Assembly: GCA_964598205.1 (NCBI GenBank)
Contig: CAZRBB010000003.1
Location: 115,186-179,185, forward strand
Length of the DNA: 64,000 bases
From: an uncultured Candidatus Saccharibacteria bacterium
GTDB taxonomy: Bacteria > Patescibacteriota > Minisyncoccia > CAIUEV01 > JAHKAQ01
Reading direction: 5' to 3'
Position numbers and translations under genes: made by a program
The notes under the pieces: generated by a model
Told to the model about the DNA's origin: nothing
Databases searched by the model: none
The model's input: only the letters and a program-made list of their open reading frames with translations
Part shown: one piece after another, positions 8,652 to 59,895 of the stretch
Numbering within the stretch: position 1 is the first letter of the stretch
How the letters are laid out: every line of letters begins with the position of its first letter

Positions 8652-8770
8652 AGCACTTTCGCACTCGGCACATTTCTTTGTTAAAATCTTCGTCGTTTGC
8701 TTACCGTAACTTAATTACGCTTGGCTTGCTTCCTTGGTTTTGTTTCGAACTGTGCCAAATGTGAAAGTAC
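8652..8770 (+). repeat. Dispersed TIR repeat family, copy A (diverged termini gcactttcgcac / gtgaaagtac, still mutually complementary)
   Basis: Shares the core cacatttctttgttaaaa...ccgtaac(t)taattacg...ggttttg..tcgaact with copies C and G. Confidence 0.8.
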
Positions 8771-8861
8771 TTAAGAGGCGATGCTTTGCTTGGTTTATAT
8801 TTAAACAAGTAAGCGCTGAAGAATTTAAGAAAATTTTTAGATAATAATAATATTTTTTCCA

Positions 8862-10100
8862 ATGTTTAACACAGGTTACAGAACAGGTACTGATAGTCGT
8901 CGTTCATCTTCTCGCCCGGGGTCTTCTTTTAGAGGAGCCAGAACAGGTTCTTCTTTTAGGGGCGGCGGTCGTTCTCGCTTTGGTCGGGCCAGAAAGGCGC
9001 CACGGTTTTTTGATCCGTCTCTTTTAACTCGCAAGGCTCAGGTTACAAAATCTGAGATATATGTTCCTAAGCATGTATTTGCCGATTTTGATTTGGCGCC
9101 AGAATTAAAAAAGAACATTGAACACAAAGGATACGAAAAACCAACGCCAATTCAGGATCAAGTAATTCCGCTTTTAATTCAAGGTAAAGATGTGATTGGC
9201 TTGGCCAACACTGGTACCGGAAAAACGGTGGCTTTTTTACTGCCATTGATCAACAAAGTTTTAAATAATAGAAATCAAAAATCATTAATTATTGCTCCAA
9301 CCAGAGAACTGGCCGTGCAAATAGACGAAGAATTGCGGTCTTTGGTGCACAATCTGCGGATTTATTCCACGGTTTGTATTGGTGGAGTTTCTTTGGGTAG
9401 GCAAATGAGCGAACTTAGAAGAGGTCCTAATTTTACCATTGGTACCCCGGGAAGATTAAAGGATTTAGCCCAAAGACGAGCGATTAATTTTAAAGAATAC
9501 CGATCAATCGTATTAGACGAAGTGGACCGAATGTTAGACATGGGATTTTTGCCAGAAATGCAAAAAATTGTTGAAAGCTTGGCTTTTCCTAGGCAATCGC
9601 TGTTTTTTTCGGCAACCTTGCCAGAAAAAACAAAAGTAATTACCAAGGATTTCCTAAAGGATCCGGTTTTTGTTTCGGTAGGAACTAAAGTGGCGGCGGA
9701 AAATGTGGATCAAGATGTAGTGCGGGTTCGTGGAGCGGTCAAGATTGACTTGCTTCATGATCTACTTTTAAAGGAAGGTTTTGACAAAGTGCTTATTTTT
9801 GGCCGGACCAAATGGGGAATAGAAAAGCTAACCGAGGATCTTTCCGTAAGAGGATTCAAGGTATCTTCTATTCATGGAAATAAAAATCAGAGTCAACGGC
9901 AAAGAGCTTTGGCACAATTCAAAGAAGGTAGAATTCAAGCGCTTTTGGCTACAGATATTGCTTCTAGAGGCTTGGATATTAGCGATGTGACTCATGTGAT
10001 TAACTATGAATTGCCAGAATCTTACGAAGATTATATTCATCGAATTGGAAGAACTGGTCGGATTGGTAAAAAAGGAACGGCACTTTCTTTTATAGATTAA
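8862..10100 (+). CDS. DEAD-box ATP-dependent RNA helicase with an N-terminal Arg/Gly/Ser-rich tail
   Basis: Q-motif, ANTGTGKT, DEVD, SAT, HRIGRTGR. Confidence 0.9.
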   Translation: MFNTGYRTGTDSRRSSSRPGSSFRGARTGSSFRGGGRSRFGRARKAPRFFDPSLLTRKAQVTKSEIYVPKHVFADFDLAPELKKNIEHKGYEKPTPIQDQVIPLLIQGKDVIGLANTGTGKTVAFLLPLINKVLNNRNQKSLIIAPTRELAVQIDEELRSLVHNLRIYSTVCIGGVSLGRQMSELRRGPNFTIGTPGRLKDLAQRRAINFKEYRSIVLDEVDRMLDMGFLPEMQKIVESLAFPRQSLFFSATLPEKTKVITKDFLKDPVFVSVGTKVAAENVDQDVVRVRGAVKIDLLHDLLLKEGFDKVLIFGRTKWGIEKLTEDLSVRGFKVSSIHGNKNQSQRQRALAQFKEGRIQALLATDIASRGLDISDVTHVINYELPESYEDYIHRIGRTGRIGKKGTALSFID

Positions 10101-10150
10101 TTGGCAAAAATTAGCTGTGATTGGGTTTAAATTTTTCTTATTGATTTCTA

Positions 10151-10178
10151 AACCGCTCCTTTGGGAGCGGTTTTTTTA
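10151..10178 (+). terminator. Rho-independent terminator after the helicase gene
   Basis: accgctcc-tttg-ggagcggt + TTTTTTT. Confidence 0.7.
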
Positions 10179-10246
10179 TTAAACAATTTGTTTGACTAGG
10201 CGAGGCCGGTTTGTTAGCTTAGAAGGAGAATTTTTTAACTCTTTTT

Positions 10247-11653
10247 ATGAAGCTAGACATTGCCGAGCTTAATTGTAAGATTGGGGAGAAAATTATTTTT
10301 TTAGGTTGGGCGGAAAGGATTAGAAGCCATAAGAATGTGGCTTTTATTGACTTAAGAGATCGTTCGGGAGTGGTTCAGGCAGTGGTAACTGGTGGAGAAA
10401 AGCTGGATTTTTTAAACAAGGAAATAAAAACAGAAAGTCTTTTAAAGATAGAGGGATTAGTCAAAGAGCGGCCAGAAAAGTTGGTGAATCCTAAATTGGT
10501 TACGGGAGGAATAGAGGTGGATGTAGAAAAGTTAGAAATTTTATCTAGCACTCTCGATCTACCATTTGTAATCAATGAGGACACCAAGGAGGTTTCAGAG
10601 GCTTTGCGCTTAAAATATCGTTATCTAGATTTACGATCAGAACGAATGCGGCGCAATTTAGAATTTAGACATAAGTTTAATCTTTTTTTAAGAAACTATT
10701 TTTCTAGGGAAGGTTTTTGGGAAATAGAGACACCTTTTTTGGCCAAGGGAACGCCAGAAGGATCACGGGAGTATATTGTTCCTTCTCGTTTGCATCAGGG
10801 AGAATTTTTCGTTTTGCCTCAGTCGCCGCAGCAGTTTAAACAGCTGTTAATGGTGGGAGGAGTAGAGAAATATTTTCAGATTGTTCGTTGTTTTAGGGAT
10901 GAAGACCAAAGAAGCGATCGTCAGCCAGAATTTACTCAATTGGATTACGAAATGTCTTTTGTGGAAGAAGAAGATGTGCTGGAATTTACAGAAAAAGTAG
11001 TTTTAGCTTTACTAAAAGAGTTAGTGCCAGAAAAAAATATTCTTAAAACGCCATTCCCGCGGTTAACTTATGCTGAGGCAATGGCTAAGTATAAAACCGA
11101 TAAGCCCGATCTTCGCTCCGATGGAGAAAAAGACATGCTGGCTTTTTGTTGGATAACGGATTTTCCTTTGTTCGAAGAAAGCGAAGAAGAAGGTAGGTTG
11201 GTTTCGGCGCACCATCCCTTTACAGCTCCAAAAGAAGAAGATGCAAAATTTTTAGAAAAAAATCCCGAAAAAGCGCGGGCCAAAGCTTATGATTTAGTGT
11301 TGAATGGTTATGAAGTGGGTGGAGGAAGTATTCGGATTTTTCAAAGAGAATTACAGGAAAAAATATTTAAGGTTTTAGGTCTTTCCGAAGAAGAAACAAA
11401 AGAACGCTTTGGCCATATGTTAGAAGCTTTTGAATTTTCTCCACCACCGCACGGAGGAATGGCTTGGGGACTGGATCGATTTATTGCCTTGTTGATGGGA
11501 GAGGAAAATATTAGAGAGGTAATTGCTTTTCCAAAAACTGGCGACGCTAAGGATTTATTAATGGGAAGTCCTTCACCGCTTCCAGAAAAGGCGTTGAGAG
11601 AGGCGGGAGTGGAACTGAGGAAGAAAAAATTAACTGGGAAATCTTCTCTTTGA
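10247..11653 (+). CDS. aspS: Aspartyl-tRNA synthetase, short archaeal/eukaryal-like type without the GAD insertion
   Basis: Class II motifs: FRDED...QPEFTQLD (motif 2) and GGGSIRIF (motif 3), plus an N-terminal OB-fold anticodon-binding domain. 468 aa. Confidence 0.8.
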   Translation: MKLDIAELNCKIGEKIIFLGWAERIRSHKNVAFIDLRDRSGVVQAVVTGGEKLDFLNKEIKTESLLKIEGLVKERPEKLVNPKLVTGGIEVDVEKLEILSSTLDLPFVINEDTKEVSEALRLKYRYLDLRSERMRRNLEFRHKFNLFLRNYFSREGFWEIETPFLAKGTPEGSREYIVPSRLHQGEFFVLPQSPQQFKQLLMVGGVEKYFQIVRCFRDEDQRSDRQPEFTQLDYEMSFVEEEDVLEFTEKVVLALLKELVPEKNILKTPFPRLTYAEAMAKYKTDKPDLRSDGEKDMLAFCWITDFPLFEESEEEGRLVSAHHPFTAPKEEDAKFLEKNPEKARAKAYDLVLNGYEVGGGSIRIFQRELQEKIFKVLGLSEEETKERFGHMLEAFEFSPPPHGGMAWGLDRFIALLMGEENIREVIAFPKTGDAKDLLMGSPSPLPEKALREAGVELRKKKLTGKSSL

Positions 11654-11659
11654 TTTTCT

Positions 11660-13414
11660 ATGAAGAAAAAGACAGTACAAATTAAAAAATCCTCTCCAAT
11701 TTTAGTAACGGCAGCGTTGCCTTATATTAATAATGTTCCCCATTTGGGGCATATTGCTGGTTCTCATTTGCCGGCGGATATTTTTACTCGTTATCTTCGG
11801 GCTACTGGCAAGGAAGTATATTTTGTAGGTGGTTCGGATGAGCATGGAACGCCTTCGGTAATCGCTGCTAAAGAATTGGGAGTTCCGGTACAGGTTTTGG
11901 CTGATCGATTGCACGCTATTCATAAAAAAGTTTACCAGAAATTGGGGATTAGTTATGACAATTACTCCCGGACTTCTTTAGCTAAACATCATTTAGTAAC
12001 ACAGGATTTTTTTAGGGAGATCAAGAAGAAATCTGAATTGATATTAGAAAAAGAAGCGGAAATGTATTACTGCGAAACGGATAAGATGTTTTTGCCGGAT
12101 CGTTTTGTGGTGGGGGTTTGCCCAAAGTGTGGCTATGATTCGGCGAATGCCGATCAATGCGAGGTTTGTAGCCAAGTGATTGCACCAGGAGAATTAATTT
12201 CTCCTTGTTGTAAGGTTTGTGGCTTGCCGCCAATAATGAAAAAAACTAAACATCTCTATCTTGATTTAGAAAAACTCTCTCTGTTATTGAATCGTTGGAT
12301 TGAAGGCAAAAAGAAAATATTTAGGCCATATGTTTATAGTTCGGCTAAAAAGTGGATTAACGAAGGGCTTAGAGCCCGATCTATTACTAGAGATCTTACC
12401 TGGGGAGTGAAGGTGCCCCAAGAAGGATTTTTAGATAAGGTTTTTTATGTTTGGTTTGATGCGCCGATTGGTTATTTAACTTTTACCAAAGAGATAAAAG
12501 AAGATTTAGAAAAAAGACTGTGGCAAGATAGAGAAGCGCGCATTTATCATTTTGTAGGGAAAGACAATATTCCTTTTCATACTATTTTTTGGCCAGCATT
12601 ACTTTTGGCGGAAGGCAAACATAATCTTCCTTATAATGTGATTGGACTGAATTATTTGAATTACGGTGGCAAGAAATTTTCTAAAAGCAAGGGGGTAGGA
12701 GTGTTTTGTTTGAACTTGCTTGATTCGCCTATTAACATTGATACTTTGCGAGCGTATTTGGCAACAGTGATTCCCGAAACCAAGGATTCTGATTTTAAAT
12801 GGGAAGAGTACCAAGAACATACCAACAGTGAGGTGATTGGAAAGTTGGGTAATTTTCTGAATAGAACTCTTTCCATGATAGATAATTATTTTGGCGGAAA
12901 GTTAGAAGCGGATTTGGGGGCTAAGAAAAGATTAACGGACCTAGATAAAAAAATTCTAAAAGAAATCAAAAATTCTTCTAAAAAGGTAGGCGGATATTTA
13001 GTAAAGGCAGAAATTCGGAAGGGATACAGGGCGGTAATGGATTTAGCACGGGCAGGGAATGTTTATTTTGATCGCTCCAAGCCGTGGGAATTAATGAAGT
13101 TAGGAAAAAGGGAAGAGGCAAAATTGGTATTGCGCTTGGCTTTCTTTTTGGCAAGATCACTGATGATTACGGCAACGCCTTTTATGCCGGAAGGAATGGC
13201 GGAAATTTGGCAAAAGCAGTTTGGCTTTTTGGGATCGCCGGGAGATTGTGGTCGGTGGGAGGAGGCAGGCGAAGTAGATTTTTCTGTGACTTACCGAACC
13301 AAAAAACCCAAGCCTTTTTATTCTAGAATAGAGGATAAAGATTTAGAGGAATTAGAAAAAGATTTGGGACAGAAGCCGGCTTTAAGAGAAATAGTAGGCT
13401 CAATTAAGAATTAG
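11660..13414 (+). CDS. metG: Methionyl-tRNA synthetase
   Basis: HIGH-type motif PHLGHIAG, KMSKS as KFSKSKG, and zinc knuckle CPKCGY...CEVC. Confidence 0.9.
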   Translation: MKKKTVQIKKSSPILVTAALPYINNVPHLGHIAGSHLPADIFTRYLRATGKEVYFVGGSDEHGTPSVIAAKELGVPVQVLADRLHAIHKKVYQKLGISYDNYSRTSLAKHHLVTQDFFREIKKKSELILEKEAEMYYCETDKMFLPDRFVVGVCPKCGYDSANADQCEVCSQVIAPGELISPCCKVCGLPPIMKKTKHLYLDLEKLSLLLNRWIEGKKKIFRPYVYSSAKKWINEGLRARSITRDLTWGVKVPQEGFLDKVFYVWFDAPIGYLTFTKEIKEDLEKRLWQDREARIYHFVGKDNIPFHTIFWPALLLAEGKHNLPYNVIGLNYLNYGGKKFSKSKGVGVFCLNLLDSPINIDTLRAYLATVIPETKDSDFKWEEYQEHTNSEVIGKLGNFLNRTLSMIDNYFGGKLEADLGAKKRLTDLDKKILKEIKNSSKKVGGYLVKAEIRKGYRAVMDLARAGNVYFDRSKPWELMKLGKREEAKLVLRLAFFLARSLMITATPFMPEGMAEIWQKQFGFLGSPGDCGRWEEAGEVDFSVTYRTKKPKPFYSRIEDKDLEELEKDLGQKPALREIVGSIKN

Positions 13415-13486
13415 TAATTCAGTATTGTTCGGTTTGTAATCGAGTTTGAGGGAGGGGGCACCTTAAAAAAACAGGAGGATCGCCTA

Positions 13487-13837
13487 ATGAGAAAGAAAAA
13501 TGGTGGAAATGGAAGGAATGGAAAGGGAAGTGGCGGTGGAATATCGTTGATTCGTTGCCTAGTTTGCTTGGATATCCATGGTTGTTCTTCTGAAAAATGG
13601 GGAGTTTGCTTTTGTGGGCTACTGTGCCGGCGTCGTCGTCGCTGTTTAATCCCATGGAGAAAAGATCTTATTTTTGTTTATCAAACTTGTATTCTATGTG
13701 CCGTTAAAAGTCAGATTCTTTTTAAAGGAACCAGTTTTTTAAACCCATTGGACGAACTCTTTCAATTATTGCCACCGGACTTTTCGGAAATTGTACCGGT
13801 AGAAATTGAAGCGGCGAAATTAAAAGAGTGCTGTTGA
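13487..13837 (+). CDS. Small Cys-rich protein (116 aa, 13 Cys, Gly-rich N-terminus); hypothetical
   Basis: Complete ORF with a strong SD aggagg 8 nt upstream, inside a GC-rich islet. The competing antisense ORF has no SD. Confidence 0.35.
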   Translation: MRKKNGGNGRNGKGSGGGISLIRCLVCLDIHGCSSEKWGVCFCGLLCRRRRRCLIPWRKDLIFVYQTCILCAVKSQILFKGTSFLNPLDELFQLLPPDFSEIVPVEIEAAKLKECC

Positions 13838-13904
13838 TTTTGGTGGAAGCGAAGTTTTTTGTTGAATCAGACCTTTTGTTGATCAATACGAGGGAGGTGA
13901 TTCG

Positions 13905-14125: not shown

Positions 14126-14141
14126 GTTGGGGGTTATTGGG

Positions 14142-22897: not shown

Positions 22898-24268
22898 ATG
22901 GAAGCGACAGCAAAAACAGCGACAGGACGGCAAGAGGCGGGGAAAGCCATTTACGTGGTTAGTACCCATGGTTACTTTGACCTGAGTTCGGAGACCGGCA
23001 GTGTATCGACAGCCGGTCGGCCGGACACCGGTGGGCAGACGGTATATACCGTCGAGCTTGCCAAGGCGTTGGGCCGGCTGGGCTACCTGGTATTTCTCGT
23101 GGTCCGGTGGTTTGACCCGTCCAAAAGAGAGTTGCAAAAGCTGGGCGATAATGCCTGGTTGCTGCGACTTCGGGGCGGACCTTGGGGATTCGTTCCCAAG
23201 GAAAGGATCTACTCGTTACTTCCGGAAATTTCCGACAATCTGGTCTCCTTTATAGAGGATGACTGGAAGGAAATGTTTAGGGAAGCAGGCGATAAGGCAC
23301 CAGAAAATGTAGATCCGGCACTGATCCATGGCCACTACATCGATGGCGGATTAGTAGCCGTTTCCGTGGCCCGCCATTTCCGTTGTCCGGTTTTTTGGAC
23401 CAGTCATTCGCTGGGTGCATTGAAAAGAGAGCGGATGGGTGGTGATCCCGAAAAGATGGAAACGGAGTTCAACTTTCGTCATCGGATAGAACAGGAAGTA
23501 GCGGTGATGAAGAAGGTCGCTAAACATGGCGGACAAACAGTGACCGCCAAAACAGAACCGGGGGACATTGAGCGCCTTTATGGGCTTGAGTTGCCGGATC
23601 TGCAGTTTATTCCGCCGGGGGTGGACACAAAAAAGTTTCATCCACTGCCATGTGGGAAAGAGATTGATCCGATTCCCGGTTGGCCAGCAGTTGGTGGACC
23701 TGTTGTCTTAATGGGTGGCCGGATTGCTAAGACCAAGGGCTATGAGCTAGCGCTCTATGCGTTTCACCGAGTGTTGCGTGAATTTCCAGACGCAAGCTTG
23801 GTGATATTTGGTGGATCGGATAACCCGTCTGGAGAGGAACAAGCTGTTCTCCAGGTAATGGACGATTACCGGGAAAAAAAAGGGATTGCCCGGCGCGTCT
23901 TTTTTCTTGGTGGCTTGACCCATGACCAGCTTCCAAAAGTTTACCGGCGAGCAGACTTGTTTTTGCTGCCGAGCAAGCACGAACCTTTTGGGATGGTACC
24001 GCTGGAGGCAGCAGCTTGCGGAACACCGGTAGTGGTCAGTTGCCATGCCGGGATTGCTTCGGAACTGAAGGACGGCGAGAATTGTTTGATCGTTGATCCC
24101 GAGGATACCCACGAGTTGGCAGAAGCGATGGCGACGCTGTTGCGCTCTTGCGAATGCGCCAAAAAAGTCGCTAAAAACGGTCACTTGACCGTCACCCGGG
24201 ATTATTCTTGGGAAGGCATCGCCAGGAGGCACTTAATTTTTTGGCGCGCCAATGGCGCCGTGATTTGA
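22898..24268 (+). CDS. Sucrose-phosphate synthase-like GT4 glycosyltransferase (GT domain only)
   Basis: GRPDTGGQTVYTVELAKALG, IHGHYIDGG, SHSLGALKRERM, PPGVDTKKF and EPFGMVPLEAAACGTPVV align with the SPS/sucrose-synthase family signatures. Confidence 0.85.
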   Translation: MEATAKTATGRQEAGKAIYVVSTHGYFDLSSETGSVSTAGRPDTGGQTVYTVELAKALGRLGYLVFLVVRWFDPSKRELQKLGDNAWLLRLRGGPWGFVPKERIYSLLPEISDNLVSFIEDDWKEMFREAGDKAPENVDPALIHGHYIDGGLVAVSVARHFRCPVFWTSHSLGALKRERMGGDPEKMETEFNFRHRIEQEVAVMKKVAKHGGQTVTAKTEPGDIERLYGLELPDLQFIPPGVDTKKFHPLPCGKEIDPIPGWPAVGGPVVLMGGRIAKTKGYELALYAFHRVLREFPDASLVIFGGSDNPSGEEQAVLQVMDDYREKKGIARRVFFLGGLTHDQLPKVYRRADLFLLPSKHEPFGMVPLEAAACGTPVVVSCHAGIASELKDGENCLIVDPEDTHELAEAMATLLRSCECAKKVAKNGHLTVTRDYSWEGIARRHLIFWRANGAVI

Positions 24269-26404: not shown

Positions 26405-26508
26405 ATTCTGCTAGGATTCATCTTTTTTCTTGGTGGGCAAGGTTTTTACGACTTATTCATTTGTATTTTTGTTCCTTAAATTCTGTATGATACAATATCT
26501 GTACCGTT

Positions 26509-26604
26509 CGCTTACCGTAATCTAATTACGCCCCGCCTCGGACGGCGGGTATGCTCACTTACTTCTCCGGCTTTGCCTTGAACTATAACCAAATGTGTAA
26601 GTCC
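26509..26604 (+). repeat. Dispersed TIR repeat family, copy B (5'-truncated; carries the GC-hairpin insert ccgcctcggacggcggg)
   Basis: cgcttaccgtaatctaattacgcc...ggctttgccttgaactataaccaaatgtgtaagtcc. Confidence 0.8.
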
Positions 26605-26634
26605 TAATTTTCATAAAATAATTAAAATAAAATT

Positions 26635-28194
26635 ATGTCCATTCCATCTTCTGGCCTAAAGAATAAAGTACAATTGATTACTTATGCCGACAGTCTTGGT
26701 CGGAATTTAAAGGAACTAAATATTGTTTTAGATAATTATTTTAAAGGGGTTGTTTACGGGGTGCATATTCTACCTTTCTATCCGTCTTCTTCGGATCGCG
26801 GCTTTTCTCCTTTAACGCATTTTAAAGTAGATTCGGCTTTTGGAGATTGGGAAGATGTAGAAAGAATCGCTAAAAAGTACGATCTAATGTGCGATTTTAT
26901 TCCGAATCATGTTTCTGCTAAGTCTGATTGGTTTTGTGATTTTTTAGAAAAAGGAGACAAGTCTCTTTATAAAGATTATTTTATTACGGCGGAGAAATTT
27001 TCTAGGCGAATCAAAAAAAATCGAGAAATTTTTCCAGCACTGACCGATTACCTAGAAAGAATTGCTAATAAATTAAGGCGATTAGATATTGTTTTTCATA
27101 AAGGGGGTGTTAATCGTTTTGTGCTAAAAAAAATTTATCGTCCTCGTCCGGGAACACCGTTTGTGGAGTTTAAGTTAAAAGATGGCACAATAAGAAATAT
27201 TTGGTGTACTTTTTCTGCTGATCAGATTGATCTAGATATCAACAATCCCGAAGTTAAGAATCATTTTAAAAAAACTTTAATTTTTTTGGCTGAAAGGGGA
27301 ATAAGATTAGTGCGCTTGGATGCGGTGGGTTATGCAGCCAAAGAGAGAGGAACTAATAACTTTTTAATTCCCGAAACTTATCAGTTGATTGAAGATCTGA
27401 CTAGAATTGCGCATCAGCGAGGAATAAAAATTCTTCCAGAAGTCCATAATCATTACACTTTCCAAATGCAGTTGGCGCGGGCTAAGGGAGTGGATTATAT
27501 TTACGATTTTGCTTTGCCTCTTTTATTAATGAATGCACTTTTTACCAAAAATGTTAAAAATTTAAAACACTGGATTAAGATTAGACCCAAAAAGGCGATT
27601 ACCACCCTAGACACGCACGACGGCTTGCCAGTGCCAGATGTAGAAGATTTAATGCCAGAAGAAGAACGAAAGATGGTGATTAAAAGAATTCGGGAAAATG
27701 GTGGGAATGATGCATTGCGGGCTTCTGGGGCCAATTCCAACAATGTGGATGTTTATCAGATTAATTGCACTTATTATTCTGCTCTAGGGGAAGATGATAA
27801 TAGTTATATTATTGCGCGGGCGGTGCAATTTTTTGTGCCGGGAATTCCCCAAGTTTATTATGTGGGACTTTTGGCTGGCAAAAATGATGCTCAAAGATTA
27901 AATAAAACCGGTATTGGTCGAGACATTAATCGTCATGCTTATACTATTGCTGAAGTAGCGGAAGAAATGAAACGGCCGGTGGTGGAGCGGTTGTTTTGGT
28001 TGATTCGTTTCCGGAATCGCTATCCAGCATTTAATGGTCGATTTTATACCAAGAAAACGGAAGAATCTGCTTTGGTTATAGGATGGAAAAAGGAAACCTG
28101 TTATTGTGAGCTGAGAGTGGATTTTTTAACCAAGAGAGCAATCGTGGAATATAGGGAGAAGAAGTCGGGTAAGCGTCGTCGCCATGAGCTTTAG
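26635..28194 (+). CDS. GH13_18 sucrose phosphorylase family (sucrose, glucosylglycerol or glucosylglycerate phosphorylase)
   Basis: KNKVQLITYADSLG...GVHILPFYPSSSDRGFSP...IPNHVS, RLDAVGYAAKE, LDTHDG, and YQINCTYYSALG...QFFVPGIPQVYYVGLLAGKND closely follow sucrose phosphorylase signatures. Confidence 0.9.
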   Translation: MSIPSSGLKNKVQLITYADSLGRNLKELNIVLDNYFKGVVYGVHILPFYPSSSDRGFSPLTHFKVDSAFGDWEDVERIAKKYDLMCDFIPNHVSAKSDWFCDFLEKGDKSLYKDYFITAEKFSRRIKKNREIFPALTDYLERIANKLRRLDIVFHKGGVNRFVLKKIYRPRPGTPFVEFKLKDGTIRNIWCTFSADQIDLDINNPEVKNHFKKTLIFLAERGIRLVRLDAVGYAAKERGTNNFLIPETYQLIEDLTRIAHQRGIKILPEVHNHYTFQMQLARAKGVDYIYDFALPLLLMNALFTKNVKNLKHWIKIRPKKAITTLDTHDGLPVPDVEDLMPEEERKMVIKRIRENGGNDALRASGANSNNVDVYQINCTYYSALGEDDNSYIIARAVQFFVPGIPQVYYVGLLAGKNDAQRLNKTGIGRDINRHAYTIAEVAEEMKRPVVERLFWLIRFRNRYPAFNGRFYTKKTEESALVIGWKKETCYCELRVDFLTKRAIVEYREKKSGKRRRHEL

Positions 28195-28223: not shown

Positions 28224-29054
28224 ATGACCAGAGAAAGGCTAACTATTACACTAAAAAAAGATATCATCGGTTTTTTGGATCGTTTTGTAGATGGGGCACG
28301 GATTAGAAACCGTTCTCATGCCATAGAATATATTTTGGCTAAGCATTTTTTACCGGAATCGGTTAAGGTGTTGATTCTAACAGGGGGAGAGGGGATAAAG
28401 TTGCGACCAATAACTTACGAAATTCCTAAAGCATTGATCCCGATTCATAATCGACCGCTTTTGGAATACACGCTGGAATTTTTAGCTAAGGCGAATTTAA
28501 AAGACTTAATTTTTGCGACTGGTCACTTGGGAGAAAAAATAGAAGCTCACTTTTTAGATGGGACTCGGTTTGGAGTAAAAATAAGTTATTCCAGAGAGAA
28601 AGAAAAAAATTCAGGAACAGTAGTGCCGCTTTTAGAAGCGCGTTCTCAATTGGAAGGTGGGACTTTTTTGGTAGTTTATGGCGATGTTCTAGCTGATATT
28701 GATTACTTGGATCTTTTAGAGTTTCATAAAAAAAATAAGGGATTGGCAACGGTGGCTTTGACTTCGGTAGATCGACCGGCGGAATGGGGAGTAGCAAGTT
28801 TGCAGGGTAATCGGATTACGCAGTTCGAAGAGAAACCAAAAACTAAAGTTTCTTCTCACTTGATTAATGCTGGGGTTTATGTTTTTGATTCGCGGATTTT
28901 TGATTATTTGAGCCCAGACCAGCGAAGTTTGTCTGGGGATGTTTTCCCTCTTTTGGCTCAAAAAGGTGAATTGTTGGGATATTCTTTTTTTGGTCGGTGG
29001 CACGATGTTGGTTCGCCACGGGCCTATACTCAGGCGCTTAAGGAATGGCGGTAA
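28224..29054 (+). CDS. Fusion protein: N-terminal ribbon-helix-helix (CopG/Arc/MetJ-like) domain plus a sugar-1-phosphate nucleotidyltransferase (RmlA/GalU/GlgC-like NTP_transferase)
   Basis: Residues ~4-42 RLTITLKKDIIGFLDRFVDGARIRNRSHAIEYILAKH fit the RHH beta-alphaA-G-x-(S/N)-alphaB pattern. They are followed by LILTGGEGIKLRPITYEIPKALIPI, the G-rich NDP-sugar pyrophosphorylase motif. Confidence 0.7.
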   Translation: MTRERLTITLKKDIIGFLDRFVDGARIRNRSHAIEYILAKHFLPESVKVLILTGGEGIKLRPITYEIPKALIPIHNRPLLEYTLEFLAKANLKDLIFATGHLGEKIEAHFLDGTRFGVKISYSREKEKNSGTVVPLLEARSQLEGGTFLVVYGDVLADIDYLDLLEFHKKNKGLATVALTSVDRPAEWGVASLQGNRITQFEEKPKTKVSSHLINAGVYVFDSRIFDYLSPDQRSLSGDVFPLLAQKGELLGYSFFGRWHDVGSPRAYTQALKEWR

Positions 29055-29413
29055 TTCAATTACGAATAAAGAATAAAGAATTACGAATAAAATTAGAATT
29101 GAGAGTTTTAAATTATTTTGGAATTCAGAATTAACAAGAAGGGATTCTTCGCTTCGCTCAGTATGACAAAAATAATTTGTAATTTAGAATTAAAAATTTA
29201 TTCGAAATTCAAAACTCGAAATTAAGAATTATATGTCTTGGTAAATTTGACAGTACAAAAAAAAGGCTTATGATAAAGCCATAAATTATTCAATGATTTT
29301 AAGACAAACCACAATCTGTTCCGCAGTAAAAAAGGCAGGGTCTACCCCAGCCGGTTTTGGTTTGTTCTTAAGAAGTAACGGATGATCTAAGGAAAAAATC
29401 TAAGAGCAAACCA

Positions 29414-32501: not shown

Positions 32502-32735
32502 ATGGGTCTTAAAGAACTCTTGCAAAAATGGGGTCTAATGAAAAAAGATGAATCAGTGGAAGGTGGAGAAGTGCAAAGCAACAACGAAGAAGAAGTTGCT
32601 ACACCAACAGAGACCGAAGAAGACTCAGAGGTAACAGTGGTGGACGATGATTCGGAAACCGAAACAGAAGAAGCCCCTGTTTCAACAGAGATGCCTACCA
32701 AAGAAACAGACGAAACAGACGAAACAAACAATTAA
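32502..32735 (+). CDS. Small acidic protein (77 aa, E/D/T-rich tail); hypothetical
   Basis: Complete ORF followed by a strong terminator. Confidence 0.45.
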   Translation: MGLKELLQKWGLMKKDESVEGGEVQSNNEEEVATPTETEEDSEVTVVDDDSETETEEAPVSTEMPTKETDETDETNN

Positions 32736-32790: not shown

Positions 32791-32932
32791 GGACTTACGC
32801 GTAGCCGCATATTTCTTTGTTAAAACCTGCGCCACTCGCTCACCGTAACCTAATTACGTCCCGCCTCGGACGGCGGGCATGCTCGCTCGCTTGCTCGGTT
32901 TTGCCTCGAACTATACTCAAACGCGTAAGTCC
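32791..32932 (+). repeat. Dispersed TIR repeat family, copy C (full length, 142 bp, 12-bp perfect TIR ggacttacgcgt/acgcgtaagtcc, with GC-hairpin insert)
   Basis: Reference copy. Convergent intergenic region between the small acidic ORF and zupT. Confidence 0.85.
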
Positions 32933-32947
32933 TAATTTTTAAGAGAA

Positions 32948-41064: not shown

Positions 41065-41781
41065 ATGTCGAGCTTAGTTTTTGATATTGAAACAGTGGGA
41101 GAGGATTTTAAAAAGATGGATAAAGAAACCCAAGAGGCGCTGACTTATTGGATAGAAAGGGAGTCGATGGGGGAAACGGAATATAAAAAAAATGTGGATC
41201 GGGTAAAAGAACGCTTAGGGCTTTCTCCCTTAACTGGAAGAGTGGTTTCGGTGGCCTTGGTGAATCCCGACACTAATAAAGGGGCAGTTTATTTTTCTGC
41301 TCCTAATCAAAAAATTAAAGATTTTAAAAAGGGAGAAGTAGAGTTTGTGGTTACTACGGAGAAAGGAATTTTGGAAAGGTTTTGGGCAGCGGCAGAAAAA
41401 TACGATGAATTTGTAACTTATAACGGTCATTCTTTTGATGTGCCTTTTTTGATTATGCGTTCCATGGCACACAAAATAAAACCCACTAAGAATATTATGT
41501 CTAACCGTTATTACCGAAGCCAGGATCCCAAGGCACGCCATGTGGATTTAATGGACCAGTTTACTTTTTACGGAGCAGTACCTAATCGACCGAAGCTACA
41601 CTTGGTTTGCCGGGCCCTAGGAATCAAGAGTCCTAAGGAAGAAGGTATTTCTGGTGCGGATGTGGCAAAATTATTTGCCAAAGGTTACTACAAAAAAATT
41701 GCTGAGTATAATTTACGAGACACATTGGCTACGGCTAGTGTTTATCGGGCTTGGAGGGAGTATCTTCGTTTCGGCTATTAG
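41065..41781 (+). CDS. DEDDy 3'-5' exonuclease, RNase H-like (PolB-exo/YprB-like)
   Basis: Exo I FDIETVGE, Exo II YNGHSFDVPFL, Exo III YNLRDTLATASVY. Confidence 0.65.
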   Translation: MSSLVFDIETVGEDFKKMDKETQEALTYWIERESMGETEYKKNVDRVKERLGLSPLTGRVVSVALVNPDTNKGAVYFSAPNQKIKDFKKGEVEFVVTTEKGILERFWAAAEKYDEFVTYNGHSFDVPFLIMRSMAHKIKPTKNIMSNRYYRSQDPKARHVDLMDQFTFYGAVPNRPKLHLVCRALGIKSPKEEGISGADVAKLFAKGYYKKIAEYNLRDTLATASVYRAWREYLRFGY

Positions 41782-41786
41782 GGGAG

Positions 41787-41854
41787 GGCTTATGCGGTTG
41801 GCACATTTCTTCGTTAAAACCTCCGTCGCTTGCTCACCATAATCTAATTACGCC
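41787..41854 (+). repeat. Dispersed TIR repeat family, copy D (3'-truncated)
   Basis: ggcttatgcggttggcacatttcttcgttaaaacctccgtcgcttgctcaccataatctaattacgcc. Confidence 0.75.
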
Positions 41855-42762
41855 AAAGTTTCTTTGGTTACTTCTTTTTTATTTATCTTAAAAAGGCCGA
41901 CTAATCTCCCTAGCCAAAAAATAATTTCCATTAAAAGGAAGAAGGGGAGTTCAAAAAGAAAGGCAACGGTTTTTAAAGTTAAAAACAAACCAAGGGCTAA
42001 GCCAAAAGCGGAAAGAGGGTTTGTTTTTTCTAAGGAATTTAAATAATCTTCTATTTTTTGATTAATAATTTGGTTAAATATTTCTGAAATTTTTAGTTGG
42101 GGATCAAGCTCCATTTTCCAAGATTTTTCTAAAGTAGCGAGATATTTATTTACTTCTAGGGCAGAAGGTTCTTGGGAGGACTCTTCTTTTAATGATTTAG
42201 AAATTGCTTGTTCTAAGGAAAGCGAAGAATCATAGCCGATTACTCCTAATTGGGAGAAGCTTTTGGTTTTTTTCAGAATAAAATCGGTAGTTTTTTGGGT
42301 TAAGGCTAAGCGAAGCGGTGGAAGGTGTTTGTTTTCGTGTTTTTTCGTTAGCTCAGAAAAGTAGAGACCGGATCCAGCAAGGAAAAGAGATGTGGTAATT
42401 AGAGAATAGCTTACCAAAAGGGTGGCACTGACCTTTATTTTAACGGAATTTTTAAGATGTCTTTTTGTTTTCTGGGCTCCAGCAGCAAAAAAGATAATAG
42501 CCAAAATTAAGGCGATAGAGGAAATAAGGCCAAAGCTGATAATTAATATAGGAAGGAAACTTAGGACAGAAATAAAAAGGGCAAAGCGGAAAGAAAGAAA
42601 AATTACCCAAAAAATAGCGATCAGGAAAATAAGAAAATAACCAAGAAGGGAAGCCCAGCTAAAACGCTGCCCTTTAAGGAATGAAAAGGCACAGAACCAA
42701 CCGGCTCCGGAGCCAAAGAGAGCAGCTAAAGAAAAAAACCAAAGACTAAGCTTGTTGGTCAT
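41848..42762 (-). CDS. Hypothetical polytopic membrane protein
   Basis: 304-aa ORF with multiple TM segments; overlaps the next gene. Confidence 0.5.
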   Translation of the reverse strand: MTNKLSLWFFSLAALFGSGAGWFCAFSFLKGQRFSWASLLGYFLIFLIAIFWVIFLSFRFALFISVLSFLPILIISFGLISSIALILAIIFFAAGAQKTKRHLKNSVKIKVSATLLVSYSLITTSLFLAGSGLYFSELTKKHENKHLPPLRLALTQKTTDFILKKTKSFSQLGVIGYDSSLSLEQAISKSLKEESSQEPSALEVNKYLATLEKSWKMELDPQLKISEIFNQIINQKIEDYLNSLEKTNPLSAFGLALGLFLTLKTVAFLFELPFFLLMEIIFWLGRLVGLFKINKKEVTKETLA

Positions 42763-43328: not shown

Positions 43329-43357
43329 ATTATTATAAGGATTTACGCGTAGCCGCA
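43329..43357 (+). repeat. Dispersed TIR repeat family, fragment E (left end only)
   Basis: ggatttacgcgtagccgcatatttcttt. Confidence 0.6.
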
Positions 43358-43470
43358 TATTTCTTTCTCATCTTACATTTTTGGAGATAAAATTTCAATC
43401 AATTGAGTTCTCTCGGTACAACGACTTGTTTCTCTTTTGTTAGAAAGTATAGAATGAAGAAAATATTACT

Positions 43471-46026: not shown

Positions 46027-46097
46027 AGAATTACGAATTACGAATTACGAATTACGAATTACGAATTACGAATTACGAATTAGTTAATTAGTTAATA
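46027..46097 (+). repeat. Tandem heptamer (GAATTAC)x8 followed by (TTAGTTAA)x2
   Basis: Read directly in the sequence, between tRNA-Leu and hup. Confidence 0.9.
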
Positions 46098-46470: not shown

Positions 46471-46560
46471 GAACTTACACGCTTGGCACATTTCTTTATT
46501 AAAACCTGCGTCACTCGCTTACTCGGTTTTGCCTAGAACTGTGCTCAAGCGTGTAAGTCC
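46471..46560 (+). repeat. Dispersed TIR repeat family, copy F (internally deleted; 15-bp perfect TIR acttacacgcttg.../...caagcgtgtaagt)
   Basis: gaacttacacgcttggcacatttctttattaaaacctgcgtcactcgcttactcggttttgcctagaactgtgctcaagcgtgtaagtcc. Confidence 0.8.
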
Positions 46561-46584: not shown

Positions 46585-47523
46585 ATGTTGAGTCAATTGA
46601 AATTTGGGGGTGTGGTTTTTTCCTTGGGTATTTTGTTTATTGGCTTAACCACTCCAGTAAAGGCAGCGAACTATGATCTTTTTGTGGATGCTAATGCTAC
46701 TGCTAGAGGGAATGGTAGCGAAGCTCTTCCTTATCTAACAATTACTCAGGCTCTAACAGCGGCAGTTGAGGGGGATAAGATATTAATCAAAGATGGAACT
46801 TATGAAGAAAGTCTTAATGTTCCCGAAAGAGTGGAATTATATGGAGAAAGTAAAAGTGGGGTGGTAATAGATGGGGGAGAAGATGGAATAACAGTTACTT
46901 TAAGTCATAAGTCAAAGTTAAAAAAATTAACAATTACAGGAGGAGATACTGGTGTTTTAGTTCCAGAAAGAGCGGGGGCGACTTTAAGTAATGTAAAAAT
47001 TAAGAAGGCTGATCATGATGGACTAGTCTTAGAAGGAGACCAAAAAACTAGAGAATCAGAAAAATACAAGAGGACGATTAAGGACTGTACAATTAAAGAC
47101 AATGACAATAAAGGAATTTATGCTAAAAAGAGCCAGCTTTCTATTGATGATTCAGAAATTTCGGAAAATGGCGAAGAGGGCGTTGATCTAAGAAAAGGGA
47201 TAAAGGTGGAAATGAAGAATAACGAACTCAGTGGAAATGGTGAAGGAAATTTGGAATTTAAAATAGATGAAGCGGATCTAGATATTAAGAGTAACTCTTT
47301 TTTGAAAGCCGGATCGAGTTCTATTGGTGCTCAGTCTTATCAGGGAAGAGGCGGAGAAATTTTAATAGAGGGGAATAAAATAAGCGGCAGTAAGCATTTT
47401 GGTTTGCGGTGTTCTGTTCAGCAAGTAAAGCCTCAAGGAGGATGGGCAAACCAGCTGTTTCTTGTAAACAATTCTTTCTCGAATAACAACAAAGGAAACA
47501 TCTCTCCTGATTGTGGTTTTTAG
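46585..47523 (+). CDS. Secreted right-handed parallel beta-helix repeat protein
   Basis: Signal peptide, then repeats of the G..G..I.N..I..N-type characteristic of the pectin-lyase fold. Confidence 0.6.
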   Translation: MLSQLKFGGVVFSLGILFIGLTTPVKAANYDLFVDANATARGNGSEALPYLTITQALTAAVEGDKILIKDGTYEESLNVPERVELYGESKSGVVIDGGEDGITVTLSHKSKLKKLTITGGDTGVLVPERAGATLSNVKIKKADHDGLVLEGDQKTRESEKYKRTIKDCTIKDNDNKGIYAKKSQLSIDDSEISENGEEGVDLRKGIKVEMKNNELSGNGEGNLEFKIDEADLDIKSNSFLKAGSSSIGAQSYQGRGGEILIEGNKISGSKHFGLRCSVQQVKPQGGWANQLFLVNNSFSNNNKGNISPDCGF

Positions 47524-53126: not shown

Positions 53127-53130
53127 AAAA

Positions 53131-53727: not shown

Positions 53728-53733
53728 AAAAAT

Positions 53734-55155: not shown

Positions 55156-55166
55156 AGAGTGAAAAA

Positions 55167-56222: not shown

Positions 56223-57645
56223 TGATTTGGTATCCTTGTTTCTCTATTGTTTGCCGCAAAAGATCGGCAGCTTGAAATTGTTTTTTTTCTTTTAAGGACT
56301 TTCTTTCCTGGGCCATTCTTTTAATGGTGATGGGGATTTTTTCTATTTTTTCTTCCAAAAGAAGGGCGAAAATTTGATCAAAATATTTTAGAGTTTCTTT
56401 GGTTTCTTTTTTATTTTGAAGTTTATTTTGGGAGAGTAGTTGATTTCCTTTTTTTACTAGGGCAAGAACAATCTTTAGGGCTTCTGGAGTGTTCAAGTCG
56501 TTAGCCATGGCTTTTTGGAACTGATGACGATAGGAATCAAGATCTATTTTTTTGGAATCGGAAAGAGGAGAAACGGTACATTTTTTTTGGAGGTTTCTGT
56601 AAAAATCGTTAAGACGCTCCCAGTTAGTTTGGGCTTGACGCATTGCGGCTAAGGTAAAATTAGCTTGGCTTCGATAATGGGAAGCTAGCTTTAAAGTCCT
56701 AAAAGCTAAAGGGTGAAAGCCTAAAGTTTCCAAATCTTGGCAGTGACCGCTGGGAGTGGGGGAAACGGTTAGGATATTGCCCAATGACTTAGACATTTTT
56801 TGTCCATCCATTAAGAAATGGCGAACATGAAGCCAATATTTAACAAAGGGTCGATTGGTGTAGGCTTCGCTTTGAGCGATTTCACATTCGTGATGAGGAA
56901 AAATATTATCTTCGCCACCAGTATGAATATCTAAGGAGTCTCCTAAATAGCGAGTGGCCATGGCGGTGCATTCAATGTGCCAACCAGGGAAGCCTTGACC
57001 CCAAGGACTATCCCAATGTAAAGAATGTTTTTTGTTTTTGCCAACTTTTTTAATCCAGAGCGCAAAGTCGGCAGGATTTTTTTTAGCTTCATTAATAGCA
57101 ACTCTAGCTCCAGAACGAATCTTTTTCAAGGTGTTTCCGGAAAGTTTTCCATAGTTAGGAAATTTTTTAACAGCAAAATAAACACCATCCTTGGTTTCGT
57201 AGGCAAACTTTTTTTTAATCAAGTCTTTTATAATGGTAATGATGGCGTCTATTTCCTGGGTAGGGCGAGGACGGAAGTGAGGCGGTTTAATGTGGAGCTT
57301 TTTTTCGTCTAATAGGAAGTATTTTATATAGTGTTCGGCGATTTTTAGTGGAGTCTTTTTTTCTCTTTTGGCGGCCTTATCCATTTTGTCCTCTCCACTA
57401 ACGCAAAGGTCTTCGTCGTCTGTAAAATGGCCAACATCGGTAATGTTTTTGATTTGCTTTACTTCGTATCCAGAAAACTCTAAGAAACGGCGTAAAATAT
57501 CGGCGGTTAAGTAGGCCCACATATTGCCAACAGAAGCGTAGTCATAAACGGTGGGACCGCAGGAATACATTTTGACTCGGCCTTTTTCTAATGGGGTAAA
57601 GGTTTCTTTTTTCTTAGAAAGGGTGTTGTAAAGCTTAATTGCCAT
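56182..57645 (-). CDS. cysS: Cysteinyl-tRNA synthetase
   Basis: MYSCGPTVYD (HIGH region) and KMSKSLGN. Confidence 0.9.
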   Translation of the reverse strand: MAIKLYNTLSKKKETFTPLEKGRVKMYSCGPTVYDYASVGNMWAYLTADILRRFLEFSGYEVKQIKNITDVGHFTDDEDLCVSGEDKMDKAAKREKKTPLKIAEHYIKYFLLDEKKLHIKPPHFRPRPTQEIDAIITIIKDLIKKKFAYETKDGVYFAVKKFPNYGKLSGNTLKKIRSGARVAINEAKKNPADFALWIKKVGKNKKHSLHWDSPWGQGFPGWHIECTAMATRYLGDSLDIHTGGEDNIFPHHECEIAQSEAYTNRPFVKYWLHVRHFLMDGQKMSKSLGNILTVSPTPSGHCQDLETLGFHPLAFRTLKLASHYRSQANFTLAAMRQAQTNWERLNDFYRNLQKKCTVSPLSDSKKIDLDSYRHQFQKAMANDLNTPEALKIVLALVKKGNQLLSQNKLQNKKETKETLKYFDQIFALLLEEKIEKIPITIKRMAQERKSLKEKKQFQAADLLRQTIEKQGYQINDQKDGAYELCKK

Positions 57646-57654
57646 GTTTGAATT

Positions 57655-58551
57655 TTAAAGCCACTTTTTTATCTTAACAAGAAGAAATGTTAGGAGCATT
57701 AAGGAAAAAACTATTCCTAAAATTAGAGCATAACTATTTATAGGAATCTTGGTGTTCATGCCAAAGATTCCTGTGACTAAGGTGCCGGGAAGTAAAACAA
57801 TAGAAAAAATGGTTAATGTTTTAATGGTTTCATTTAATTTGTAAGAAAATAAAGAATCATTGGTGGCTTCCAGCGAGTCAATGGTTTCCTTGTGGTTTTC
57901 TAAGATATGCCAAACGCGGATGTTGGCACCGATTATATCGGCAGTTCTAATTTTTAAATCTTGATCCGACTGAAATGTTTTATTAGAAGCTAAGGACTCC
58001 AAGATAGTTCTCTGTGGTTGAACAATGCGTCGAAAATTCTGAATATTTCTTTTTACAATAGATATTTCTTTAACCATTTCTTTTTCGTTGCCCAAAAAGA
58101 TTTCTGATTCTATTTTGAAAAGGTTATCTGTAATATGGTCTAATTTGGGAAAACAGGCGCTCCAAAGGTGGTCAATGAGTTTTAAGAGAAGAAGATAGGG
58201 ACTGCGGAAAGATTCATTGTGAATATCTTTTTGTTTTTGCTGTTCTTCCTGAAAAAAATAATCTAAGACTTCTTGATGTTCTAGACAGCTAGTAACTAGG
58301 TATTCATTATTAATAAGAATGTCTATTTCTCCAGTTTCTATTCGCCTATCTTGGCGATTAAAGAGAGGGAAGTGAAGTACCATGGAAATATAGTTGAGAT
58401 GTTGTTCTACTTTTGGTCGATAGGTTGGAAGATTGAATTCTCCTAAGACAATAGGATGTAGGTTGAATATTTTTTGTAAGGCTTCTAGGTCTTGGTGATC
58501 TGGTTTTTCAAAGTAGAGCCAAGTGTAGTGGGGGGTTTTAATAGATTTCAT
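57655..58551 (-). CDS. corA: CorA-family magnesium transporter
   Basis: GMN motif (GIFGMNTK) before the two C-terminal TM helices. Confidence 0.85.
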   Translation of the reverse strand: MKSIKTPHYTWLYFEKPDHQDLEALQKIFNLHPIVLGEFNLPTYRPKVEQHLNYISMVLHFPLFNRQDRRIETGEIDILINNEYLVTSCLEHQEVLDYFFQEEQQKQKDIHNESFRSPYLLLLKLIDHLWSACFPKLDHITDNLFKIESEIFLGNEKEMVKEISIVKRNIQNFRRIVQPQRTILESLASNKTFQSDQDLKIRTADIIGANIRVWHILENHKETIDSLEATNDSLFSYKLNETIKTLTIFSIVLLPGTLVTGIFGMNTKIPINSYALILGIVFSLMLLTFLLVKIKKWL

Positions 58552-58616
58552 TTTTTTAAATTTGAATAATTGAACAGTTTGGAAGATGATACTAAATATA
58601 TCATAATCTTAACAAT

Positions 58617-58699
58617 TATGAATTACGAATTTTTAATTTCGAAATAATTTTAAATTTTAAATTAAGAATTTAATCGAAATTAAAAATTCGTAATTCATA
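58617..58699. repeat. Perfect 26-bp inverted repeat (tatgaattacgaatttttaatttcga / tcgaaattaaaaattcgtaattcata) with a 31-nt AT spacer
   Basis: Read directly; the arms are exact reverse complements. Lies in the divergent corA/yidD intergenic region. Confidence 0.9.
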
Positions 58700-58713
58700 A
58701 TTCAATCTTTCTT

Positions 58714-58941
58714 ATGAATCGTGGACAAAAAGTAATTATTTTTTTAATTTCGTTTTACCAAAAAACGCTTTCGCCGGATCATAGTTGGATTAAGGTATTT
58801 TTTCCTTTTGGAGTTTGCAGATTTCATCCTACTTGTAGCGACTATACAAAAGATAAAGTAACTCGATTGGGTGCTCTCCGTGGTCTTTTTTTGGGTTTTA
58901 AAAGGATTCTTAAATGCCATCCTTTTTATAAGCCTCGCTAG
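58714..58941 (+). CDS. yidD: Membrane protein insertion efficiency factor YidD
   Basis: CRFHPTCSDY motif. Confidence 0.8.
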   Translation: MNRGQKVIIFLISFYQKTLSPDHSWIKVFFPFGVCRFHPTCSDYTKDKVTRLGALRGLFLGFKRILKCHPFYKPR

Positions 58942-58964
58942 CACTCTATCTTGACGAGTGCTAA
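58938..58964 (+). promoter_or_regulatory. CIRCE operator (HrcA binding site) upstream of hrcA
   Basis: cTAGCACTC-tatcttgac-GAGTGCTAA against consensus TTAGCACTC-N9-GAGTGCTAA. Confidence 0.85.
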
Positions 58965-58994
58965 TAGATGTTTTAAAATGATGGTAGTAAATTT

Positions 58995-59762
58995 TTGGCA
59001 ATGCTTACCACCCGTCAGGAAAAAATTTTAGAATGTGTTGTTAAGGAATATACCCGTACTGCACAGTCGGTAGGATCAAAGAACCTTTTAAATCGATACA
59101 AGTTTGGTGTGTCTCCGGCAACAATGAGAGCGGAAATGTTTGAGCTAGAAAGATTGGGATATTTATATCATCCACACACTTCTTCGGGGAGAATTCCAAC
59201 AGACAAGGGTTATCGTTTCTTTGTGGCTTCTTTAATGAAAGATAAAGAACTTTCCCGGAAGGACCAGATATCTCTCCAAGAGGAGCTTTGGAAGTTAAGA
59301 GCCAAAAGCAATCGAATGGCGCGAACAGCGGCAAAGATGTTGTCTGTTCTAAGTCATAATTTGGCAATTTCTGGAGTGGTAGAAGAAGAGGAATACTTTC
59401 AATCGGGAATTAAGGAATTACTTTCTCAGCCAGAGTTTACAGATATCGATGGAATTTGCCGTATAGTAGAAGTGTTGGATTATTTAGATCAGAATATAGC
59501 CGATCTCTTGGTTGATTTAAAGCAGGGAGAGGTTAAGGCCTTGATTGGTAAAGAGAATCCATTAGTAAAGGGCGAGCAGTGTTCTATCGTGGTGGCTCGT
59601 TGTCGGTTGCCAGAGGGAGAAACTGGCATAATTGCAATCATGGGACCTAAAAGAATGGAATATGCAAAGAATATTTCTTTGGTGCGTTATGTTTCAGAAG
59701 TCTTGGAAGGAAGGGCAGAATTAAGCGGACCGTTGTCAATTAAAACAGAGGACAACAGCTGA
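58995..59762 (+). CDS. hrcA: Heat-inducible transcription repressor HrcA (short form)
   Basis: LTTRQEKIL...VGSKNL...SPATMRAEMFELERLGYLYHPHTSSGRIPTDKGYRFFV. Confidence 0.8.
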   Translation: MAMLTTRQEKILECVVKEYTRTAQSVGSKNLLNRYKFGVSPATMRAEMFELERLGYLYHPHTSSGRIPTDKGYRFFVASLMKDKELSRKDQISLQEELWKLRAKSNRMARTAAKMLSVLSHNLAISGVVEEEEYFQSGIKELLSQPEFTDIDGICRIVEVLDYLDQNIADLLVDLKQGEVKALIGKENPLVKGEQCSIVVARCRLPEGETGIIAIMGPKRMEYAKNISLVRYVSEVLEGRAELSGPLSIKTEDNS

Positions 59763-59776
59763 TTCTAAATTATTAT

Positions 59777-59895
59777 GACTTACGCGTAGCCACATATTTT
59801 TTCGTTAAAATCTGTGCCATTCACTCACCGTAACCTAATTATGCCTTACTTGCTTTTCCGGTTTTGCCTTGAACTATAATCAAACGCGTAAGTCC
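59777..59895 (+). repeat. Dispersed TIR repeat family, copy G (full length without GC insert) between hrcA and grpE
   Basis: gacttacgcgtagccacatattttttcgttaaaatctgtgccattcactcaccgtaacctaattatgcc...ggttttgccttgaactataatcaaacgcgtaagtcc. Confidence 0.85.

Follow-up and report, generated by a model that had tools for sequence, protein, structure and literature searches.

A strand-polar family of foldback repeats with covarying ends in a candidate phyla radiation bacterium

The window and its repeat copies

The window analysed here, a 64-kb stretch of bacterial chromosome with 39% G+C, carries housekeeping genes, an RNase P RNA and three tRNAs, and between its genes lie seven copies of one non-coding repeat, a foldback element whose full copies are 90-145 bases long. 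Two further truncated copies were found on DNA neighbouring the window, and the family as studied here comprises nine copies of 26-145 nt in ~88 kb, all of them intergenic and scattered over unrelated loci. The two ends of the intact copies have changed together in a way that keeps them complementary, and this covariation signal is genuine. DnaK, HrcA and other proteins of the window are identical on a 106-kb JGI metagenome contig (3300044991) and in Logan assemblies. Since the nearest named relatives of HrcA (53-66% identity) come from Moranbacteria and from metagenome-assembled genomes labelled 'Patescibacteria group', the host is a Moranbacteria-like bacterium of the candidate phyla radiation (CPR). 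The genomes of CPR bacteria, or Patescibacteria, are small and streamlined.

All seven copies in the window lie on the + strand, and four of them (A, C, F and G) are full length. Copy A (8653-8772), a medium form of 120 nt that scores 125 bits with a covariance model of the family, directly follows the terminator of obg (8619-8637) and precedes a DEAD-helicase gene; its terminal stem, ACTTTCGCA/TGTGAAAGT, contains one G·U pair and C·A mismatches. Copy C (32791-32935) is the long form, with 145 nt and a score of 166 bits, and its terminal stem, GGACTTACGCGT/ACGCGTAAGTCC, is perfect over 12 bp. It lies after the terminator of an open reading frame (ORF) of 77 amino acids and adjoins the 3' end of a convergent ZIP gene. 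Copy F (46471-46560), the short form of 90 nt with an internal deletion between CTCGCT direct repeats, is found between the terminator of the HU gene and a beta-helix gene at 46585. This copy has the longest stem of the family, ACTTACACGCTTG/CAAGCGTGTAAGT plus GCACA/TGTGC (13 bp plus 5 bp), together with two compensated pairs and the strongest fold (z about -8). Copy G (59776-59895, 120 nt) has the same terminal stem as copy C and occupies the spacer between hrcA and grpE in the heat-shock operon.

The other copies, B, D, E, H and I, each lack an arm. Copy B (26494-26611, +) is truncated at its 5' side, where it lacks the terminal arm and begins near the AAAAYC stem described below; its 3' arm ends in CAAATGTGTAAGTCC, and an alpha-amylase-family gene begins downstream at 26635. 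Copy D (41786-41853, +) is truncated at the 3' side and keeps the 5' arm, the centre and the CGTAA/TTACG hairpin. It starts 5 nt past the stop codon of the gene at 41065-41781 and extends to the 3' end of the convergent gene at 41848-42762. Copy E (43341-43366, +), in a divergent intergenic region, is reduced to the 5'-terminal 26 nt (GGATTTACGCGTAGCCGCATATTTCT) of the subtype shared by copies C and G. Copy H is a 5' fragment of 30 nt on the same contig, 9 kb upstream of the window (L088, 12962-12993). Copy I lies on another contig, from a sister sample (L142, 2349-2483), and was found when a profile of one open frame was compared with 1.84 billion representatives, which retrieved a 58-amino-acid ORF (P0121) called over it. 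This ORF (L142, 2357-2533), a 'hypothetical protein' in the JGI annotation, is spurious and reads through copy I. In place of the 3' terminal arm, copy I has an intrinsic terminator (AAAAAACCCCTGTCGTTGCAGGGGGTTTTT), and a second GGACTTGC motif occurs 75 nt beyond the copy, at about 2558 of L142. At the truncation points of copies B and H, the DNA alongside (26470-26500 of the window and L088, 12930-12960, minus strand) has -10-like boxes, TGATACAAT and TTGTACAAT respectively, just upstream of the next gene; these may be a coincidence, or promoters formed at the repeat breakpoints.

A covariance model built from all nine copies detected no additional copy in the window or its flanks, and it scored the + orientation at 104-166 bits compared with 34-41 bits for the palindromic mirror match. 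The family is previously undescribed and non-coding. Among GTDB species representatives, the conserved 5' block gave 84 single matches in unrelated taxa, all of them chance (nhmmer, at most 18 bits). In JGI metagenome contigs the 5' block had 0 matches and the 3' block 1 chance match, and all 16 matches in IMG/VR were due to chance. No match was obtained in plasmids (blastn, distant mode), nor with a protein query made from all copies, translated in six frames and concatenated, up to E = 10. In the literature, we found no account of any dense family of intergenic repeats in Patescibacteria or other CPR bacteria.

Contig L128 ends within copy C, which is how multicopy repeats behave in assemblies. 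The repeats are also a practical concern for annotation; they break assemblies and produce spurious ORF calls such as P0121. Several assemblies break as well at a different repeat, a perfect heptamer tandem array (GAATTAC)n at 46028-46082, between a tRNA-Leu gene and the HU gene. This array varies in copy number: the window has 7.9 units and the JGI contig (L132, 12558-12626), identical in other respects, has 9.9. Degenerate relatives of the motif occur at 29053-29093 and 58609-58649. The 77-amino-acid ORF upstream of copy C (32502-32735) is a JGI-called gene with its own terminator and no Pfam match; its product is highly acidic, and a 9-nt tandem repeat (GAAACAGAC, 2.7 units) encodes ETDETDET. 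The direct-repeat family D5 (5148-5230, 6215-6297 and 23957-24039) is not a mobile repeat but a conserved motif of paralogous GT4 glycosyltransferase genes.

Fold of the element and covariation of its ends

Each full copy forms one long imperfect hairpin on either strand, with a terminal stem of 12-18 bp. The RNA folds of the copies have z-scores of -3 to -8, and DNA parameters give the same fold. The outer end is conserved (GGACTTAC...GTAAGTCC), and the terminal stem consists of GGACTTAC followed by 4-10 variable pairs, so that its inner part is variable yet complementary. Inward of this stem, a short variable block leads to a second stem, GCAYA/TRTGC, and then to an invariant T·C mismatch and TTC/GAA. 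Two conserved blocks, TTTCTTTGTT and GCCTNGAAC, are unpaired, and the loop sequences on the two sides, TTTGTT and GCCTN, are unlike each other but conserved. The AAAAYC/GGTTTT stem comes next and encloses an asymmetric centre, within which CGTAA-N5-TTACG forms a mini-hairpin. Conservation is highest in the loop blocks and in the AAAAYC/GGTTTT stem (0.07-0.18 differences per site). Three size classes exist, with the short form F lacking the centre between its two CTCGCT repeats, and two subfamilies can be told apart: copies C, E and G are of the type AGCC...CATA, and copies A, D, F and H of the type TTGG...CACA.

An extra GC hairpin of 22 nt is present in copies B (26532-26549), C (CCCGCCTCGGACGGCGGG, 32860-32877) and I (L142, about 2409-2427) and nowhere else in the window. 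It has a 6-bp GC stem (CCCGCC-loop-GGCGGG) that is unchanged in copy I, where the loop reads TCTGGGC instead of TCGGAC, and it may be a nested mini-insertion or a marker of a subfamily. Three other roles for the element were considered and rejected. A single frame stays open across most of the 5' halves; the absence of a start codon and the frameshifts between copies speak against coding. The TGnTAAAAT-like box of copy A is not conserved (TAAAAC in C, D and F) and promoter scans stay at background. The stems are not followed by a T-run, and the intrinsic terminators near A, C and F are separate hairpins upstream of the element.

The earlier note on this DNA had claimed, from the termini of copies A, C and F, that the two ends of each copy changed together and kept their complementarity. 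The sequence quoted for copy C, CTTACGCG, is found at 32794-32801 (+) and 32922-32929 (-) and again at 59779/59885 in copy G, giving four matches where 0.6 are expected, and that of copy F, CTTACACGCTTG, at 46474-46485 (+) and 46546-46557 (-), where none is expected. The ends of copy A are also in place, but are less clean than the note has them: the 5' end, CTTTCGCA, lies opposite TGTGAAAG with one G·T wobble, and there are C·A mismatches at two positions nearby.

The covariation was measured on the four full copies, a tiny set in which C and G are near-identical and the signal amounts to about five events. Across these copies, 88.4% of the cells are paired, compared with 84.8% in shuffles (none of 500 shuffles reached the observed value), and pairing falls to 20-42% when the partner is slid. 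Changes on both sides were found in five of the 23 pairs of the terminal helix, a result reached by 17 of 500 shuffles, and the covariation score was 0.045 compared with 0.030 in shuffles (6/500). The compensated pairs are 11/140 (A-U to U-A) and 15/136 (G-C to A-U) in copy A, 13/138 (G-C to A-U) and 16/135 (U-A to C-G) in copy F, and 24/127, where C-G against U-A separates A and F from C and G. A blind RNAalifold run on the same copies returned identical helices and the identical five compensated pairs. When copy I is included, pair 16/135 also shows A-U, a third Watson-Crick type, besides U-A and C-G; in addition, copy I has an inserted A facing the T bulge of C, F and G. The 5' arm of each copy pairs best with its own 3' arm, with the true assignment at the top of the 24 permutations (98, with 97 for the runner-up).

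The inner half of the terminal stem differs by a mean of 0.33 per site between copies in both arms, as much as the unpaired centre (0.30-0.38), yet 23 of 24 inner-stem cells pair. Terminal mismatches are therefore not as frequent as internal divergence, and the ends change together beyond what independent decay would give. The earlier note had gone further and read this as selection on base-pairing rather than decay of a dead repeat. The covariation on which this reading was built holds, but complementary double changes can also arise from template switching or from selection at the level of the element during transposition, and template-switch correction of quasipalindromes is reported to raise arm complementarity without selection (PMC7202029). 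The contrast drawn with decay is also only half correct, since B, D, E, H and I have each lost an arm.

Insertion, polarity and mode of spread

The hrcA-grpE spacer is 150 bp long in the window, and 120 nt of it are copy G. In relatives with otherwise conserved synteny, the spacer is 55 bp (the one close relative, 88% HrcA identity) or 35 or 10 bp (two relatives at about 65%), and the covariance model found no copy in the 20-kb syntenic regions of these relatives. Copy G is thus an insertion, with presence and absence at an orthologous site seen at this one locus. Some relatives encode a longer GrpE of 300 amino acids with an N-terminal NUDIX match (L106, 10728-11630), compared with the plain GrpE of 184 amino acids in the window (59913-60467).

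The terminal inverted repeats are perfect over 12 bp in C and G, comprise 13 bp plus 5 bp in F and are imperfect in A. No consistent target-site duplication was found at the copies: TA...TA flanks F and G only, and A, C, D, E and H have no TA on the left. The left flanks share no motif (AAAAAA, TTAAAT, GAGTTA, TTATTA, TATAA, CTAAAA and AATAG), and the right flank reads TA(A/T) in four of five copies, where it may be part of the element.

GC skew is strongly positive in every 4-kb bin of the window (+0.10 to +0.29), irrespective of gene strand, which indicates that the whole window belongs to one replichore with + as the leading strand. The copies themselves have a negative skew (-0.10 to -0.29), opposite to the genome trend, and all nine have the same orientation relative to the positive skew (two-sided p about 0.004). 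A co-oriented gene also precedes eight of the nine. Copies D, G, H and I begin 0-15 nt past a stop codon, and A, C and F begin 6-25 nt past an intrinsic terminator.

As the best explanation, we tentatively propose that the family is a lineage-specific mobile foldback repeat, similar to a miniature inverted-repeat transposable element (MITE) or a REPIN, whose folded single strand is recognised and copied. The folded single strand would be what gets copied, and propagation would be limited to copies whose arms still pair, which amounts to selection at the level of the element. If only arm-paired copies propagate, new copies inherit matched arms, and the one-armed copies B, D, E, H and I would be dead remnants. 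Propagation along these lines has been proposed for REPINs. Two observations, the uniform polarity and the absence of a consistent target-site duplication, favour a mechanism coupled to replication that would recognise a single-stranded hairpin over a classical enzyme for double-strand cut-and-paste. If the element affects mRNA, as a hairpin in a 3' untranslated region or between cistrons, this would be secondary. A more specific version, which we put forward as a conjecture of low confidence, has a strand-polar foldback element spreading in step with replication in a CPR bacterium. Its single-stranded hairpin would be the form recognised, and a tyrosine (HUH) transposase, or some enzyme so far unconnected with repeats of this sort, would move it; the host may have co-opted it as a 3'-end or intercistronic RNA hairpin.

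Several observations weigh against this proposal. Only four full copies underlie the covariation, and the true assignment of arms leads the permutations narrowly (98 vs 97). No empty site could be aligned at the nucleotide level to define the exact ends and a target-site duplication. With one replichore and eight of nine copies after a co-oriented gene, replication polarity and transcription polarity are inseparable, and family-specific orientation bias relative to replication has been documented for many insertion sequence families, several of the DDE type among them (PMC3971601). The TA...TA flanks of F and G would fit an enzyme of the IS630/Tc1 type. A Pfam search of the window and its 10-kb flanks (about 84 kb) gave no transposase domain, and hence no mobilising enzyme. 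Finally, strain-level insertion polymorphism was not seen, as each copy has the same sequence in all the contigs taken from other samples.

Pairing might instead be selected by the host in RNA, with the element serving as a hairpin in 3' untranslated regions or between cistrons that protects against exonucleases or forms an RNase III site, roles that have been proposed for REP, ERIC and Correia elements. Such a stem would account for the covariation and the strong RNA folds, and the sites agree with it in part: every copy is co-oriented with at least one neighbouring gene, four start within 15 nt of a stop codon, copy G lies inside the hrcA-grpE-dnaK operon, and copy I stands between a stop codon and an intrinsic terminator. 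However, A, C and F sit downstream of intrinsic terminators, an arm is lost in five of nine copies, and the element is missing at the orthologous sites of relatives. The mismatch cells read on the + strand comprise 6 G·U and 10 A·C, the latter being G·U on the opposite strand, and minus-strand RNA folds as well or better (-60.6 compared with -47.2 kcal/mol for copy C). Since there is no strand-specific wobble signal, nothing favours an RNA stem over a DNA hairpin. With the Rfam 15 covariance models, only RNase P and the three tRNAs reached the gathering score, and no model matched at any copy up to E = 5. Of the two options in the earlier note, an RNA stem or a DNA cruciform or transposase end, the first is therefore not specifically supported, and we consider a host-selected RNA stem unlikely.

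The symmetric counts of G·U and A·C suit a process at the DNA level, and one such process needs no selection on pairing at all: correction of one arm by the other, through template switching or hairpin mismatch repair, in a repeat that is or was mobile. Template switching perfects imperfect inverted repeats (PMC7202029), and the A gained by copy I, which yields a perfect stem of 10-11 bp, resembles such a perfecting event. Frequent correction would, however, have erased the asymmetries of the element in some copies, whereas every two-sided copy keeps the T·C mismatch that separates the second helix from the third, as well as the unlike loops TTTGTT and GCCTN. Copies C and G also retain an unpaired AGCC/TCAA block. 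These conserved asymmetries make arm-to-arm correction an improbable source of the covariation. The weakest alternative, a classical DDE-type MITE (for example IS630/Tc1-like) with subfamilies whose ends track the binding specificity of their transposase or descend from different master copies and whose pairing is irrelevant, draws on the conserved outer 8 bp (GGACTTAC/GTAAGTCC, 0.07-0.23) that resemble a cleavage or binding end, on the visible subfamilies (C/E/G and A/D/F/H), on the TA...TA flanks of F and G and on the short form F, which is comparable to the internal-deletion variants known from Correia elements, but appears quite unlikely given the absent left TA at A, C, D, E and H with no consistent target-site duplication, the single orientation of nine of nine copies, the lack of a transposase in about 84 kb, and at least three or four inner-stem variants among five copies, which are hard to square with one or two sequence-specific enzymes.

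Comparison with known repeat systems

Complementary changes of the two ends are a known behaviour of bacterial miniature mobile repeats; what is new here is the family and its CPR host, and the parts of most note are this host and the uniform polarity. The window holds about one copy every 9 kb, and at this density a megabase would contain roughly a hundred. Should the family be confirmed across the genome, it would serve as a marker of replicators within CPR genomes, as a natural data set for telling selected pairing from pairing maintained by template switching, and as a handle on whether the polarity of insertion is linked to replication or to transcription.

Correia (NEMIS) elements of Neisseria and ERIC and YPAL units of enterobacteria are intergenic repeats of 100-160 bp that are often co-transcribed with neighbouring genes and can form RNA hairpins. 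The repeats described here share with them the long inverted ends and the occurrence of full-length and internally deleted size classes, but have no sequence similarity to any collection searched. Correia elements have TA duplicated regularly at their flanks and are found in either orientation, whereas the TA flanks are inconsistent here and nine of nine copies have one orientation.

Uniform orientation relative to the replication strand is a point of likeness with miniature elements derived from IS200/IS605 (PATEs) and with single-strand transposition coupled to replication. Recognition of a hairpin, as in IS200/IS605, and not of a double-stranded sequence would explain both the covariation and the missing target-site duplication. 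The ends of IS200/IS605 elements, however, carry separate subterminal hairpins in direct orientation and no terminal inverted repeat, and insertion takes place 3' of a fixed target of 4-5 nt. In the present family, pairing over about 40 nt joins one end to the other, and the left flanks show no conservation.

REPINs, described in Pseudomonas, E. coli and others, are hairpin-forming doublets of REP sequences that RAYT tyrosine transposases mobilise. The family resembles them as a non-coding intergenic element of ~100 nt that forms a long hairpin in single-stranded DNA or RNA, with ends more conserved than the spacer. Compensatory changes, likewise present here, are reported to be common in REPIN hairpins (PMC3116915). 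The half-elements of REPINs, or singlets, are read as remnants and are comparable to copies E and H. The differences lie in the arms, which do not appear to be REP palindromes and do not fold as separate REP hairpins, and which do not share a conserved GTAG-type 5' tetranucleotide (GTAG is confined to the C/E/G subtype, and there to the 5' arm). No RAYT gene was seen in the about 84 kb read, and the host is a CPR bacterium. The conserved centre here is asymmetric and gives the element a clear polarity. A strand-polar hairpin replicator of this kind, if real, would be a REPIN-like system without earlier description in the candidate phyla radiation.

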